Assembly (NCBI GenBank): GCA_951406725.2
Contig: OX597819.1
Coordinates: 104,098,001 to 104,162,000, forward strand
Length of the DNA stretch: 64,000 bases
Reading direction: 5' to 3'
DNA from: Octopus vulgaris
Taxonomy: Eukaryota
The notes beneath the pieces were generated by a model. That model made no database searches, was not told the DNA's origin, and saw only the letters and a program-made list of their open reading frames with translations. A program made the translations under genes and the position numbers. This document shows, in pieces, positions 31,784-40,986 of the stretch (the first letter of the stretch is position 1; each line of letters opens with the position of its first letter).

Positions 31784-31794
31784 GGTATATATAT

Positions 31795-32576
31795 ATACCG
31801 GAGTAAGCACATAAATGTGAAACAAGGTGGAAAGAAGAGTACTCAAATACCAGAGGTAAAGTAATATGCTTCATTTAAAAGCAGCTGAAATATAACAAAA
31901 GCTGTTACTCAGAGTTTCACGTTCTCGCTCGTCGGACAGTTTTGTTAAAATAGAACAGAAACAACGATATGATCCAAACTAGTTAAAGGATACACCTTTA
32001 AAAATGGATTTGTTTCATTGGTCCTTTCAATTAACGGTCTTAAGCATGCAATGAACAAAATAAACAAAATAAATGGAATATAAATTCATCCTATTATAAA
32101 AATCGAAGAAAACCTTAAATCGAAGAGTGGATTCAAAATATATATTGGAAATAATTATATACGAAATATAATTCAATTAACACATTAAAATTAAAATTTT
32201 CACGCAGCGTTACATAAATATTTTAGAACAGTTTATACACATACTAGACCATCTATATATATAGATCAAAATACACATACGCATGCACACAGACCACATA
32301 CATATACAGGCATATATATGTAAGACAAATATACGCACAAATACACATATACAGATGTATATATATATATATATATATATGTACGCAATCATGTTCGCAT
32401 ACGAACATCTCTTGGTTTATACATAAAGAAGTTATAACAGGCAAGCTAGATGAGAAGTATCTTTCAAACGTAGGGAGGGGTAAAGAAAAAGGAAAGGAAA
32501 GATCTTAAACGTAACAGTTGGTGAAGGAAACAAGTAAGGGGGAGAGAAGTGGAACACATTATTAAATGATGCTATA
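31795..32576 (-). mobile_element. Inverted pseudo-LTR of the Penelope-like element
   Basis: 32345-32576 is the reverse complement of 35065-35288, and 32250-32350 of 36157-36260; contains an HHR. Confidence 0.85.
31893..31947 (-). ncRNA. Type I hammerhead ribozyme motif with variant core CCGACGA
   Basis: taacaaaa-ctgt-CCGACGA-gcg-agaa-cgt-GAAA-ctctgag-TA^acag-c-ttttgtta; helix I is 12 bp with one bulge. Confidence 0.75.
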
Positions 32577-34386
32577 AATTCCGTAAATACAGCAACCAAT
32601 TACAGAAAAATTAGAGAAATTAACAGCTCGAATAAGATCTTCGTTAATTCTGATAAGACAAAAACCTTATACACGTTTTATAAAGACGTTTACAAGCGTC
32701 TAATTTCGAATAGCATCACATGCAAAAAAGATAACGCAAATTTATACAAAGAGGTGAATTTGGAGGCAAGAAGAATAGCTGACAATCTTAAGATTAGCGA
32801 TAGGATAGAATATCTTCCCCCCCTACCCGCCTTTATTACCCTAAAAGACCATAAAGTAAATTTTAATAGAAGCCCTAAATGTAGATTGATTAATCCGGCG
32901 AAAACTGAAATAGGTATTATTAGCAAATAAATTTTAGATCGTATTTTAACCAAGTTAGATAGTGAATTAAATTTGAGAATTTGGAAAAATAGTAAGTCAG
33001 TAATAGATTGGTTTAAAGGGATTAGCCATAAGCATAACTACAAATTTACGCACCTTAATATTGTTGACTTTTACCCGTCAATATCTAGGCCTTTACTCCT
33101 AAAAGCATTAGACTTCGCCAAGCAGTATGTCAACATCGATAACTTGGAAATAGATATTATCATACATGCGAGGAAATCACTTCTTTTTTTACGAGGATTC
33201 TACCTAGGTCAAAAAGAGTGAGGATTCTCTTTTCGATGTATCAATGGGGGCATACGACAGGGCTGAGTTATGTGTGCTCATAGGAGCTTATATTTTGTAC
33301 AATCTAAAGCTAGAATTCCCGTTTATAGACGCAGGATTATATTGGGATGACGGCCTTATAGTTATCCATAATTTAAATGGCCATAAATTAGACAAGCTTA
33401 GGAAGGATCTAATGGATTTCTTCCAAAGGATGGGCTTACGGATTACGATAGATTCTAACCTTAAAAGTGTAGATTTTTGAGATGTAAATTTAGACTTACA
33501 GTCGAATAAATTCAAACCTTACCTTAAGCCTAATGATAAACTATCTTATATTAGCAAAGAATCCAATCATCCGCCAGTTATTTTTAGGAACTTTGTCAGT
33601 AATGTAGATAGACGAATATCGTCAATTTCTTCGGATGAGGCAGCATTCCAAAATGCCGCACCTTATTACAATAGCGCATTAAGGAATAGTGGATTCTCTG
33701 AGATCTAGTATAACCAACTTAACGCTAGCAGTAATGCTACACGTAAAACTAGGACCAGGAAGATTTTATGGTTTAACCCAGCTTTCAAATGTGGCCGTAA
33801 AAACAAATATAGGTAGGGAATTCTTAAAATTAGTCTTTAGACACTTTCAACCTGACTATAAGTTTTATAGAATATTTAATAGACGAACGCTTAAGATCAG
33901 CTATTCTTGCTGCAAAAACTTAGCCTCTTTTATTAACCAACACAACAATAAGATTACTGCAAATAATCATAGTGCCGATTCTTTTCCTAAAAATTGCAAT
34001 TGCAAAGGTGGGACCTCCTGTCTGTTGGAAGGAAAATGTCTGGAGAAAGGAATCGTGTATAGAGCCAAAGTGCAGATAGAAGGCTCACACGAATATAGAA
34101 CTTACACAGGGGCTTCTGAAAATTCTTTCAAAACCCAATTTTATTCTCATAGAAATTCCTTCCGATACCTCGAAAATAGGACAAAGACAAGCCTGGCAAA
34201 ATATGTCTGGGAATTAAAAGACACGGTACGCATAAAAGATCCCTCAAATGCGATTTATGTCTGTTGGAAAAATTGTATATTTTAATCCAGGACAATAACG
34301 CTTTGACTCAAAGACGCGAACTCTTGAATTCCTGCAGACATGCAACAAAATTCAAAATGTCGGCTAAAAATATACAATATGGATAG
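32577..34386 (+). pseudogene. Penelope-like element ORF (reverse transcriptase plus C-terminal GIY-YIG endonuclease), probably Naiad clade; 5'-truncated with stops and frameshifts
   Basis: SDKTKNLY, AFITLKDHK, IVDFYPSI, MGAYDRAEL, GLYWDDGL, SNHPP, CNC...CLLEGKCL..IVYRA...TYTGASENSFK, CDLCLLEK and CRH motifs. Confidence 0.93.
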
Positions 34387-35350
34387 TATATGTTTTTTGA
34401 TTCTTGAACTAGTTTTTAATCACACTGTTGGATTCGTATCTAATAATACATGATTTATTTCGCATCGCAAAGATATTGTATATATTTCGACATATTTCTT
34501 AAGAAAACCTTCGACTGTTATATGCATATATTATTTTCATTTTTAAGATTCTATTTTTATTTTATTTTATTGTATTTTATAAACCCATTTAATCGTTTAA
34601 TTTATAGATAATTCGATAAAGGGTGTTCTATTTTGCATGTCATTTATCCGAATTTTATTATTATACACTCAGCAATTTTTAAAATAAGTTGTTTGTATAT
34701 ATACGCCAGGAGCTAGATATCTTTTTATGTGGATGTCTGTATTGTTGGCATGCATATGTATTTGTATGTGTGCGTCTATGTATATGTGTAAGTAAGCGCG
34801 TATGTTTATACTTGTGCACATACATACATGGATGTATATGTATGCATGTATACACTTATATTTATGTAGATGTGTATTTACGTGCATATTTCTATATATT
34901 TATATGTGATCTTATATGTGTATTTATGCTAATATACACTTTTGTATACTCATATATACGTAATTTTATTTTATGTACGTTTGTTACACTTATTCCACCA
35001 CCTATCAATCTCTCTTTTATCTTTCCTTACGAGAAATATCCTTTTTCTCCCTATTTGTGACTTGTATAGTGTCATTTAATAATGCGTTCCTCTTCTCTTC
35101 CCCTTACTTACCTGTTTCCCTCACCAACTGTTACGTTTAAGATCCTTCCTTTCCTTTTTCTTCCCTCCTCCCTACGTTTAAAATATACTTCTCATCTAGC
35201 TTGTCTGTTATAACTTCTATATGTATACACCAAGAGATGTTCGTATGCGAGCGTGGTTGCGTACATATATATATACATCTGTATATGTTCATACAGCACC
35301 AGGGGAGAAGACAAAGAAACAAAATAAACTATCAAAAAAAATATTTGATA

Positions 35351-35409
35351 ATTCCAGATTCCGGATTTCTGGCTCTACATAAGAAATGCTTTGCCTTCAT
35401 CAGTGGAAT
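35351..35409 (-). ncRNA. Type I hammerhead ribozyme motif
   Basis: attcca-CTGATGA-a-ggc-aaa-gcat-ttctt-atgt-aga-gcc-a-GAAA-tccgga-ATC^tggaat; 6-bp helix I and palindromic tccgga in helix III. Confidence 0.8.
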
Positions 35410-35446
35410 ATACGCAAAATAGTACATAAATACAATTATATATATA

Positions 35447-35496
<50 letters not shown>

Positions 35497-35499
35497 CAA

Positions 35500-35545
<46 letters not shown>

Positions 35546-35654
35546 ATATTTCGGAATGGTCATATTGCCAGTTTAGCCAATAAAAACACGCACTATATAT
35601 TTGGTGTTATTTTGCTTCAGTGATATTTATTTTTACATTAATCTTAATCTTATT

Positions 35655-35698
35655 TCGCAAAGTTCTTTCGTCACACTCCTGTGACCGCATCAGTGGTC
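35655..35698 (-). ncRNA. Hammerhead-like relic with core CTGATGC
   Basis: acca-CTGATGC-g-gtcac-aggagt-gtgac-GAAA-gaac-TT-tg; perfect 5-bp helix II but weak helix I. Confidence 0.4.
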
Positions 35699-35838
35699 CT
35701 TTGTTTTCTTTCACTTACTTGTGTCTCTCCTTACTAACCGTCTAATAAATATCACTGAAGCAAAATAACACCAAATATATAGTGCGTGTGTTTTTATTGG
35801 CTAAACTGGCAATATGACCATACATACAAACATATATA

Positions 35839-35875
<37 letters not shown>

Positions 35876-36261
35876 ATTAATGTACTATTTTGCGTATATG
35901 CAGAGCCAGAAATGCGGGATCTGGAATTTTGCTAGTTTATTTTGTCTCTTTGTCTTCTCTCCTAGGGCTGTATGAACTTTTAATGTGGTTTTAGAATAAA
36001 GTTTTGACTACTAAATCTAGCATGGTGGTTTCTCTTTGATACCCTTAATTATCATTTTAATAATTATTACCTATGAGGTTTTTATTCCCATGCTAGCCAT
36101 CTGATATGATCGGTATTTTCAATAACGATCTTATCCTTATTTATATAAATTTACATGTGTATATGTGTATTTGTGCGTATATTTATGTCTTACATATATA
36201 TGCTTGTATTTGTATGTGGTTTGTGAGCATGCATATGTGTATTTTGATGTATATATGTATA

Positions 36262-37742
<1,481 letters not shown>

Positions 37743-37998: not shown

Positions 37999-40642
37999 TT
38001 GTTGTTGGCATCCTTTTTGTCTCGGGAGACAATGGAGTTGCGCATAAAATAATCTAGTCCGGCTTTTACATTTCATATCCTAATACATCTCCTACTGTGG
38101 TTGTGTAGTCCTATCCTGGACAAACACTCCCTCTAGCAGGCGCTGCAAATGTAGCGAAGACTTTGCCTGGCTGGTTGTAATGTCATACTTTCTTGTTGAC
38201 GTCTTTTCTTGTCTTTCCATTTCTCCTCTCTCTCCACGTCACTCTTTGTGTTCCCTCTTTTACGGTACGTCGCCAATCTCCACGGTTCCTGGCAACTGCT
38301 TCCCAGTTGGTAATATTGATGTTGCAGGCATTCATGTCCCTTTTGCAAACATCCTTGTATCGTAAGAACGGTCTTTCCCCAGACCTAGTGCCCCTAGCTA
38401 ACTCTCCGAAGAGTATGTGCAAATATGCTTGGTATTCCTGCTTGTTTGAGGATATCTTTGTTGGGCACATGATTTTGCCATTTGATTCGAAGGATTTTCC
38501 GGAGGTAGCGCAGGTGAAAGATATTTAGGCGACGCTCTTGGCGTGTGTATGGCGTCCAAGTCTCACTTACATACGGTAGAGTGCTAAGTACACATGCCTG
38601 GTAAATCTTCATTTTTGTAGTCTTGGTCAGCTTATTGTTGTCCCATTCCCGTTTGGATAGTTGTGCCATCACAGCAGCTGCCTTGCCAATGCGTATATTG
38701 AGCTCAGCATCAAGGGATGGGTTGTAGGTGACGGTTGAGCTAAGATAGGTAAACTTCTTCACCTCCTGTAGTCTGTGGTCTCCAATATGTATGTTTGGGA
38801 TGTCCGATGTAGCCTGACCCATGATGTTGGTCTTCTTGAGGCTGATAACTAAGCCAAAGTCGCAACATGCTTGCTCAAAACAGTTACTGAGCCTTTGTAG
38901 GTCTTCTTCTGTGTGTGATACCAGAGCGTCATCATTAGCAAATAGCACCTCCTTGATCAGGACACTTCTGATTTTGGTCTTGACACACAGACGTGAGAGA
39001 TTGAACAGTTTCCCGTCACTTCTACTGCGCAGAAACACTCCATCATCTGATGTCTGAAAGGCATGTGACAGCAGCAGCGAGAAGATGCCAAATAATGTAG
39101 GAGTGAGAGCACAACCTTGCTTTGCCCCGTTTTTTATTTGGAAGGCAGCCGATGTTGACCCATTATGCTGTATGGTGCCTTGCATATGATCATGGAAAGA
39201 TTTGATGATCCTCAGCAGCTTAGTTGGACATCCGATCTTTTGGAGCTGGATGAAGAGGCCTTTTCTACTTACCAAGTCAAAGGCCTTTGTCAGGTCAATG
39301 AAGGCCATATATAATGGCACTTTCTGCTCTCTGGACTTCTGAAGTTGGCGTATGGAGAATATCATGTCAGTAGTTGATCTGCTTCTTCTAAAGCCACACT
39401 GCGATTCTGGATAAATTCGAGAAGCAGGCAGTTGTAGCCTGGACAGCATAACGCAAGCAAAGGCCTTTCCAACAGTGCTTAGAAGAGATATTCCACGGTA
39501 ATTGTTACAATCACCACGTTCACCTTTGTTTTTGTAAAGCGTAATGATGTTAGCATCCCGCATATCCTGAGGGACTGGACCCTCACCCCAGCACTAACAC
39601 AGAAGCACATGAAGGTGTCGAAGCAGGATTGTGTTTTTGCCGGTTTTGATATCTAACGGGATGACGTCTTTTCCCGGAGCCTTCTTACTTGCTTGGGAGT
39701 CAATAGCCTTGGTGAGCTCTGCTATAGATGGCAGAGTGTCAAATTCACACGTGACTGGCAAAATCTTGACACCCTCGATTGCAGCCTCCGCTATCGTGGT
39801 CTCCCTTGAGTAGAGATTCTGGTAGTACTCCACCCATCTATCCATTTGCTTGCTTTGGTCCTTGATGAAATCCCCAGTAGTTGATTTCAGAGGGGCTGAC
39901 TTGGTTGCGGATGGACCGAGGGCCTTCTTCAAACCGGCATACATCCCATGGGTGTCGCCACTGTCAGCAGCTGACTGGATACTCTGACAGATTTCCTGCC
40001 AATACCTATTTGCACAGCGTCTGACAGTCAGTTGGGTTTTATTTCTTGCCTTTCTGAGTTCTTCGAGTGACTTTGTAGAAGAATCACTCTTGTATTGCAT
40101 CAGAGCTGCACGCTTTGCTTTGATAACTGTTTCCAGCTCTGAGAGCCCAGCACTGAACTAATCTGGGTTTTGCCTTTCTCTCATGCGAAAAATATCTATT
40201 GATGTGGTATACAAAGCTTCTCTGATATAATTCCACCTACTTTCAGCAGAGGAGGTTGGGCAGCTACTGAGGGCAACTTTGATAGAAACAGCAAATCATT
40301 TTCGCAGTGTAGGGTCCGAGGTTCTGGCAGTGTTAATGCGTGGTCGGCCCATTTTCTGAGAGTGATGGACTTTCTTAGGCAGAATCCTCACCCTGCTTCT
40401 TATTAGTGAATGATGTGTCACAATCCGCACTGTAGTAACTACGGATCAGTTGAACAGAATTCAAAAAGGATCTTCGTGTAAAGGTGAGATCCAGCTGATG
40501 CCAGTGGTGAGATCTTGGATGTCTCCAAGATGCCTTGTGGGATGTCTTGTTGGCAAAGAATGTGTTGGTGATGCACGGGTTATGGTATGTGCAAAATTCA
40601 AGTAGTCTCTGACCATTGCCATTCATGTTGCCAATATCAAAA
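37999..40642 (-). mobile_element. RTE-clade LINE, 5'-truncated within the APE endonuclease; inactive
   Basis: GNMNGNGQRLLEFC and SWRHPRSHHWHQLD (endonuclease); NYRGISLLS, ESQCGFR, FIDLTKAFD, GAKQGC, LFANDDAL (RT, catalytic motif degraded); (CAA)n-type tail. Confidence 0.96.
38394..39563 (-). pseudogene. RTE ORF2 reverse-transcriptase segment (389-aa open stretch)
   Basis: ORF-track translation carries the non-LTR RT motifs; neighbouring segments are separated by stops or frameshifts. Confidence 0.93.
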
Positions 40643-40659
40643 CACATACACTTACATAT

Positions 40660-40729
<70 letters not shown>

Positions 40730-40782
40730 GTTTAAATATTTGTTGTGCAAGATTTTTTATGTGAAGTCGTGTGTTGAAACAG

Positions 40783-40986
40783 ATATTGTTATATTTCGGA
40801 ATAGTCATATTGCCAGTTTAGCCAATAAAAACACACGCACTATATATTTGGTGTTATTTTGCTTCAGTGATATTTAAGATTAATGTAAAAAATAAATATC
40901 ACTGAAGCAAAATAACACCAAATATATAGTGCGTGTGTTTTTATTGGCTAAACTGGCAATATGACCATTCCGAAATATAACAATAT
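40783..40986. repeat. Near-perfect palindrome: 94-bp arms, 16-nt spacer, 1 mismatch seen; same family as 35538-35821
   Basis: atattgttatatttcggaatagtc...gatattta and taaatatc...gaccattccgaaatataacaatat. Confidence 0.95.

Follow-up and report, generated by a model that had tools for sequence, protein, structure and literature searches.

The closest described counterparts of the locus reported here are insertions of EN+ Penelope-type retroelements (PLEs), which are cited in what follows, like the other systems, from the available text of the papers concerned. Pen2a_Av lies inside Pen3 with a one-sided tail, an inverted pLTR and a 9-bp target-site duplication (TSD), and represents a case of PLE-in-PLE nesting (PMC3846280). 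The Hydra clade is marked by a DKT motif and a CxCX5C linker, and a CX2-5CxxC linker is common to Neptune, Nematis and Naiad (PMC8557442).

A related arrangement was found in a 64,000-nt stretch of Octopus vulgaris DNA (GCA_951406725.2, contig OX597819.1, positions 104,098,001 to 104,162,000; hereafter the window, whose own numbering is used). The locus very probably comprises three nested PLEs, likely inserted in succession: a host PLE received an outer fold-back, which received an inner fold-back stump. Like the EN+ PLE insertions on record (Pen2a_Av, PMC3846280; PMC8557442), it combines inverted, 5'-truncated copies with a tail at one end, TSDs of similar size, insertion of PLE into PLE and (TA)n targets. 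It differs from Pen2a_Av in showing three levels instead of two, in its tails of about 55 nt (inner) and 90 nt (outer) as compared to 30-40 nt, and in the reduction of the inner and outer units to ORF-less stumps. The fold-backs are by-products of PLE integration and do not constitute an independent unit; such arrangements have been published before (PMC3846280, PMC8557442, PMC4209133). As such, the nest reflects the ordinary decay of elements already known and is of a known kind; the copy in the window is dead DNA, and no function is predicted for it. Its anatomy is real, and every layer is a genome-wide PLE family, none of them a MITE.

Three elements at one locus

The host is predicted to be a decayed coding PLE of Hydra type. 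The DKT motif, the CxCX5C linker, a C-terminal EN and a hammerhead ribozyme (HHR) are all present, an assignment made by motifs. The RWK motif was not seen in the host frame, whose 5' part is missing, and the RT/EN frame gave no Pfam match above the cut-off. Host-family loci contain ten matches to the HHR motif, with C4 in seven and U4 in three. A preliminary description of the locus, made from the sequence alone, had listed three HHR-related motifs; all three were found, and the HHR of the inverted host pLTR (at about 31941-31902) adds a fourth. Apart from this and the corrections given below, every coordinate of that description proved accurate (Table 1).

Table 1. Features of the nested locus in window coordinates
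Feature	Position	Strand	Remark
Inverted host pLTR	31785..32576	-	extends beyond the view of the preliminary description; 9.3% divergent from direct copy
Fourth HHR, minimal type I motif of host PLE	31902..31941	-	core 31935-31929, C at position 4, palindromic helix III
Host RT + EN frame, 5'-truncated, broken	32538..34370	+	three-frame translation; DKT motif, CxCX5C linker
Host 3' UTR and direct pLTR, left part	34371..35288	+	
14-nt target duplication, left copy	35275..35288	+	last 4 nt also match outer-family sequence (microhomology)
Outer left arm, part of ~483-nt ORF-less HHR unit	35289..35504	-	stops at unit position ~306, before either usual end
Outer HHR	35351..35410	-	core 35403-35397; predicted cut near 35356; helix III G-to-A
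15-nt direct repeat (likely TSD), left copy	35490..35504	+	37 nt from inner arm, across a TA run
Inner left arm, pLTR piece of coding PLE	35541..35742	-	from frequent 5' stop (ref 268) to short 3' end
Inner HHR-like motif	35656..35699	-	A9C, U17, 2-nt deletion in helix I
Inner right arm	35744..35821	+	ends just past start codon of family's long ORF (35814-35816)
15-nt direct repeat, right copy	35820..35834	+	
Outer right arm	35872..36152	+	private 29- and 14-nt deletions; reaches family's long 3' end
14-nt duplication, right copy (36153-36166), and resumed host pLTR	36153..36262	+	cut off at ~36263 by another repeat

The host family provides directly observed empty sites for the outer insertion. 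The 14-nt repeat that flanks the outer layer with one mismatch had been read as a target duplication, with its single occurrence in the inverted pLTR as an empty-site control. Both sides of the insertion site are present in 25 of the 29 host loci examined, and in all 25 they are contiguous with the 14-mer in single copy, which confirms the duplication as real. Because four of its bases are common to the insert, its length is 11-15 nt. Further downstream, a repeat starting with a CTAG-containing word at 36263 cuts off the host pLTR ahead of its HHR; we take it to resemble a Helitron-type end. The remainder of the direct host pLTR was not found within the window.

Nesting order and divergence between arms agree. 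Divergence amounts to 9.3% between the inverted and the direct host pLTR, 8.7% for the outer layer and 0 of 76 positions for the inner layer, values that arm-to-arm conversion could have lowered. The inner layer is thus the youngest, and the ages of host and outer layer are not separable by divergence. The outer and the inner fold-back are both atypical in that one arm of each ends short of either usual end, and later deletion may therefore have shaped their junctions. Contigs of four DNA-type runs, in which alleles lacking the inner or the outer layer were sought, break at the TA runs.

The outer fold-back, a dispersed unit

The outer layer extends from 35289 to 36152. Its arms, previously placed at 35287-35433 and 35872-35977, match in inverted orientation with 9 mismatches in 104 aligned bases and with deletions of 29 and 14 nt in the right arm; these positions stand, except that the right arm runs on to 36152. 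The HHR described as complete on the minus strand indeed has its core and an AUC, and helices I and II fold. However, helix III carries a mismatch, an extra A precedes GAAA family-wide, and an A opposes an A at the base of helix II, likewise throughout the family. The plus copy has lost its core, as had been noted, through the 29-nt deletion, whose junction has a single match in the genome; a recurrent jump of the RT was rejected as its origin on the strength of that one match. Rfam yielded no HHR at the gathering score or at E values up to 10, and the HHR calls made here consequently rest on motif anatomy.

Searches of the 2.8-Gb assembly revealed a dispersed family. A first look gave 1,829 candidates, 40 of which were scored and are 89-92% identical to the arm, and a 30-mer of the outer HHR has 135 exact matches in the genome. 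Sixty loci mapped to one unit form head-to-tail partial tandems of about 483 nt with variable 5' truncation and with inversion points anywhere from unit position 1 to 444. The period is 472-546 nt in four loci, and the longest ATG frame has 42 codons. Upstream of 30 loci chosen by the unit start alone, mostly the end of a previous unit was encountered. Among 60 copies spanning the HHR, CUGANGA is kept in 47, together with GAAA in 43, with NUH and helix I in 36 and with a 3-bp helix III in 31; the extra A before GAAA is present in all 60. Partial tandems are common, and one pair of HHR matches on the same strand, 476 bp apart, occurs among 100 listed of the 135.

After removal of 20 duplicate loci, 33 outer fold-backs could be classed by their ends. 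In 15 of them a long end is paired with a short end and in 18 one end lies elsewhere; pairs of two long or two short ends did not occur. One arm ends at unit position 305-311 in two further loci (L006, L016) as well as in the window, perhaps at a third, minor 3' end.

With its tandem, non-coding unit that carries one type I HHR, the outer family fits a non-LTR retrozyme, which would have been moved by a PLE enzyme. In common with non-LTR retrozymes (PMC7229834; bioRxiv 10.64898/2026.07.22.740005) it has ORF-less head-to-tail copies, one type I HHR, an AT-rich composition, a length (483 nt) within their range of 51-972 bp and a TSD of more than 4 bp. Unlike them it is seen here chiefly in the form of fold-backs and incomplete tandems, whose long and short ends are PLE-like, and it contains the invariant extra A before GAAA. 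When peptides of the host and inner PLEs were compared by tblastn with 89 outer loci, no ORF joined to the unit was found, and the hits nearby were four distinct ones. Neither an autonomous partner nor a parent PLE of the unit was found; similarity to the host or inner pLTR is absent.

The inner fold-back and its coding family

The inner layer (35541-35821) appears to be the truncated, inverted pLTR stump of a young coding PLE of Neptune type with RT and GIY-YIG domains. Its arms (35556-35631 and 35744-35821) are identical at 76 of 76 positions, plus a 2-nt indel, and the third HHR-like motif that they had been said to enclose lies there on the minus strand. The supposed loop, by contrast, is part of the left arm, which renders the inner unit asymmetric. 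The repeats reported to flank this layer are 15 nt long, and an independent empty site is lacking for them. The left copy is separated from the end of the inner arm by 37 nt that include a TA run.

Related copies are 93-99% identical to that of the window, and GIY-YIG and RT frames lie upstream of their pLTR. Six long stretches represent full pLTR-ORF-pLTR units, none of them fully intact. The best has a period of 4,649 bp (~4.65 kb) and a frame of 1,302 codons with one stop, YVDD and YVGET; its Pfam matches, RVT_1 (E 2e-4) and GIY-YIG (E 0.002), stay under the curated cut-off. RT and C-terminal GIY-YIG share one ORF, the pLTR carries an HHR, and copies occur as pLTR-ORF-pLTR partial tandems or inverted and truncated with a one-sided tail, all of which is in line with EN+ PLEs. 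The linker, CX4CxxC, fits the CX2-5CxxC pattern and places the family in the Neptune/Nematis type, an assignment made from the linker. As in PAc (Poseidon of Anolis, PMC11167929), two 3' ends lie inside the 5' part of the ORF and the HHR is close to the start codon; the family differs from PAc in its linker and in an ORF that starts about 100 nt past the predicted cut and not inside the HHR.

Several observations concern other members of this family and its surroundings. A second fold-back is present at window positions 40729-40986; it pairs a long with a short end, its arms start at ref 384 and 365, it has no HHR and it sits between TA runs. In the 5' half of the ORF of one locus (L240), the RT is preceded by a long segment rich in Asn, which is similar to the N-rich inserts of PMC3846280. 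A separate palindrome of about 274 bp is inserted in the 3' UTR of another copy (L039). Identical fold-backs with identical flanks occur at about 6-7 loci (L040, L042-L047), about 5-6 of them on one contig, and behave as segmental copies do, whether by segmental duplication or as an assembly repeat. The window also holds a broken LINE-type RT frame on the minus strand (38394-40600; Pfam RVT_1, E 3e-26).

The ends of inner copies follow a nearly strict pattern. Of 41 fold-backs (6 duplicates dropped), 37 combine a long and a short end, four, including that of the window, have one odd end, and none has two ends alike; five of six further long loci are also of the long-short type and one (L199) has two long ends. 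Counted from the start of the ORF, the two 3' ends are at about 23 and 80 nt, within its first 80 nt. Among the first 100 matches listed, inspection by eye gave 23 minus/plus pairs, spaced 119-3,981 bp apart, and no plus/minus pair. Loci chosen solely by their 3' part contain 42 truncated arms; 9 of these end at ref 255-273, about 50 nt ahead of the core, as does the left arm in the window, and we would guess that a transcript starts near this point. Contigs of four putative RNA runs extend over the inner pLTR and portions of the ORF.

These family data bear on what the layers are. The preliminary description had proposed successive retro-insertions of non-coding ribozyme cassettes. Insertion of the layers into one another and into a PLE end was upheld, but the inner layer turned out to be a pLTR piece of a coding PLE. 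That both layers are self-propagating cassettes with the fold-back as the mobile form is hence very improbable: such a model is compatible with the ORF-less outer unit with one HHR each and with its strong folding back, and is refuted for the inner layer by that pLTR. Moreover, inversion points differ among loci, the core-deletion junction is private to the window, and the identical fold-backs, the only ones of that kind, have their flanks in common. The chance that the layers are fixed-length TIR MITEs with fortuitous HHR-like words is negligible, even though inverted arms in TA-rich DNA and the missing Rfam match would suit them. Independent copies with variable inversion points, a possibility already raised, were found for both layers, and with them the MITE model fails; unequal arms of variable length, the wide spacing of inner pairs, the linkage to RT and GIY-YIG and the presence of HHR helices and core in family order all speak against it. 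Neither layer has the fixed length, symmetric TIRs and short fixed TSD of MITEs.

Direct repeats at the flanks are rare in both families. They were detected at 3 of 41 inner fold-backs (control mean 0.3) and at 2 of 33 outer ones (control mean 0.8), by an exact-match test that misses the outer repeat of the window. Nearly all inner copies terminate in (TA)n. Most copies of the families sit in such DNA, which accounts for the rarity. One might alternatively assume a correct nest whose two direct repeats arose later by microhomology-driven deletion or slippage in TA/CA-rich DNA, considering that each repeat lies at the arm that ends short, with 2-4 nt of microhomology and in a low-complexity context, and that family copies seldom have such repeats. 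We regard this as unlikely because the outer repeat exactly duplicates a stretch of the host that occurs only once in all 25 of 25 copies, because one outer copy (L011) bears an abutting 16-nt repeat, and because TSDs of 8-10 bp on such PLE units are published (PMC3846280). A target duplication is preferred for the outer repeat and is the likely origin of the inner one.

Hammerhead variants and a proposed course of integration

The HHR of the inner family occurs in three states. Exact matches in the genome number 626 for the canonical A9 form and 3,263 for A9C, 1,387 of the latter with U17 in addition, and reversed controls gave none. Older copies are under-represented in such exact matching, and the real excess of C9 is therefore estimated to be nearer twofold. 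Median pairwise distance is 8.5% for A9/C17 (10 arms), 3.5% for C9/C17 (24 arms) and 1.0% for C9/U17 (42 arms), with the C9 sets biased towards the window copy (13 C9 arms taken from the pattern list give 1.4%). Loop mutations were seen in 23 of 100 listed A9 matches versus 6 of 100 listed C9 matches. In a tree the variant labels cluster, though it is unrooted and needs six changes for four groups. Based on age and on the canonical state we infer that the series would lead from the canonical form, the oldest, to A9C and on to A9C+C17U, the youngest.

Other features of these motifs were noted. Putative-RNA contigs mostly show C17 (L240:6656), and U17 makes up about 4 in 10 of the genomic C9 matches, a difference that may arise because the youngest copies are silenced or from an artefact of the contigs. 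Two of ten A9 copies (L189, L197) have a perfect 5-bp helix I and the rest a mismatch there, possibly an earlier step of decay. One fold-back (L169:1443-2338) combines an A9 arm with a C9 arm, which points to two templates, back mutation or conversion and speaks against the use of just one RNA template in all cases. We considered whether A9C and C17U had been maintained because they are silent in a frame that begins at the core AUG, and rejected the idea: both are synonymous there, but this frame ends after 19 codons, the start of the long ORF lies 132 nt further on, and by eye no splicing that would join the two was seen. Folding of the inner motif with the second GAAA instead was dismissed because, by eye, helix I is then missing.

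Judging by mutagenesis work, A9C and U17 would likely lower HHR cleavage. For core mutations in general a lower HHR activity is described, A9C being unnamed in the available text (PMC3088659, PMC9901934). The presence of near-intact full-length copies in the variant series suggests that cleavage is likely dispensable for the spread of the inner family. There is precedent for this idea, as HHR mutants left PAc insertion in vitro unblocked (PMC11167929) and HHR-less Naiads thrive (PMC8557442). The HHRs resemble the minimal type I HHRs of metazoan PLEs (PMC4209133) in the extra nucleotide between 9 and 10.1, the short palindromic helix III and opposite-strand pairs 100-700 bp apart; they differ in that A9C is fixed in the most numerous inner subfamilies, a variant not found in the available text of that paper. 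No report of A9C or of such a series was found in the literature searched, whose supplements or figures may list it. Recently active Penelope families of Octopus vulgaris are described in PMC13282606, whose main text does not use the word ribozyme, and the available text of PMC6155905 yielded nothing further.

The pairing of ends can be accommodated in a model of integration. The RT-endonuclease of a PLE would cut both strands of AT-rich DNA (after PMC11167929), and each DNA end would prime reverse transcription at either of two fixed sites inside the RNA, giving the long and the short end. Both cDNAs would halt early at variable points and be joined head to head, which would produce unequal arms with their 3' ends outward, and the staggered cut would leave the duplication of 11-15 nt. 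Nesting would likely follow from a shared liking for (TA)n-rich DNA, which the elements themselves carry. Self-priming on the antisense template, instead of priming from both DNA ends, was proposed earlier from junction palindromes (PMC3846280), and several junctions overlap by 1-14 nt; by itself it leaves unexplained the long-short combination in 42 of 43 classed inner units, which matches two RT start sites (PMC11167929), and we think it has little chance of being correct. It is tempting to speculate, with slightly more doubt than conviction, that an autonomous PLE lost a core base of its HHR (A9C) and then acquired a poorer triplet (C17U) in its two most recent and largest bursts, that cleavage was dispensable or selected against, and that the long-short pairing would reflect a dimeric enzyme using each RT start once per insertion.

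The pairing of long and short ends limits, on the basis of counts, how PLEs may integrate. Three natural variants of one ribozyme that differ in age would permit a direct test of whether PLEs need their hammerheads or simply carry them along, a question raised by PMC8557442 and PMC11167929. The locus serves as an entry to a family of thousands of dated copies.
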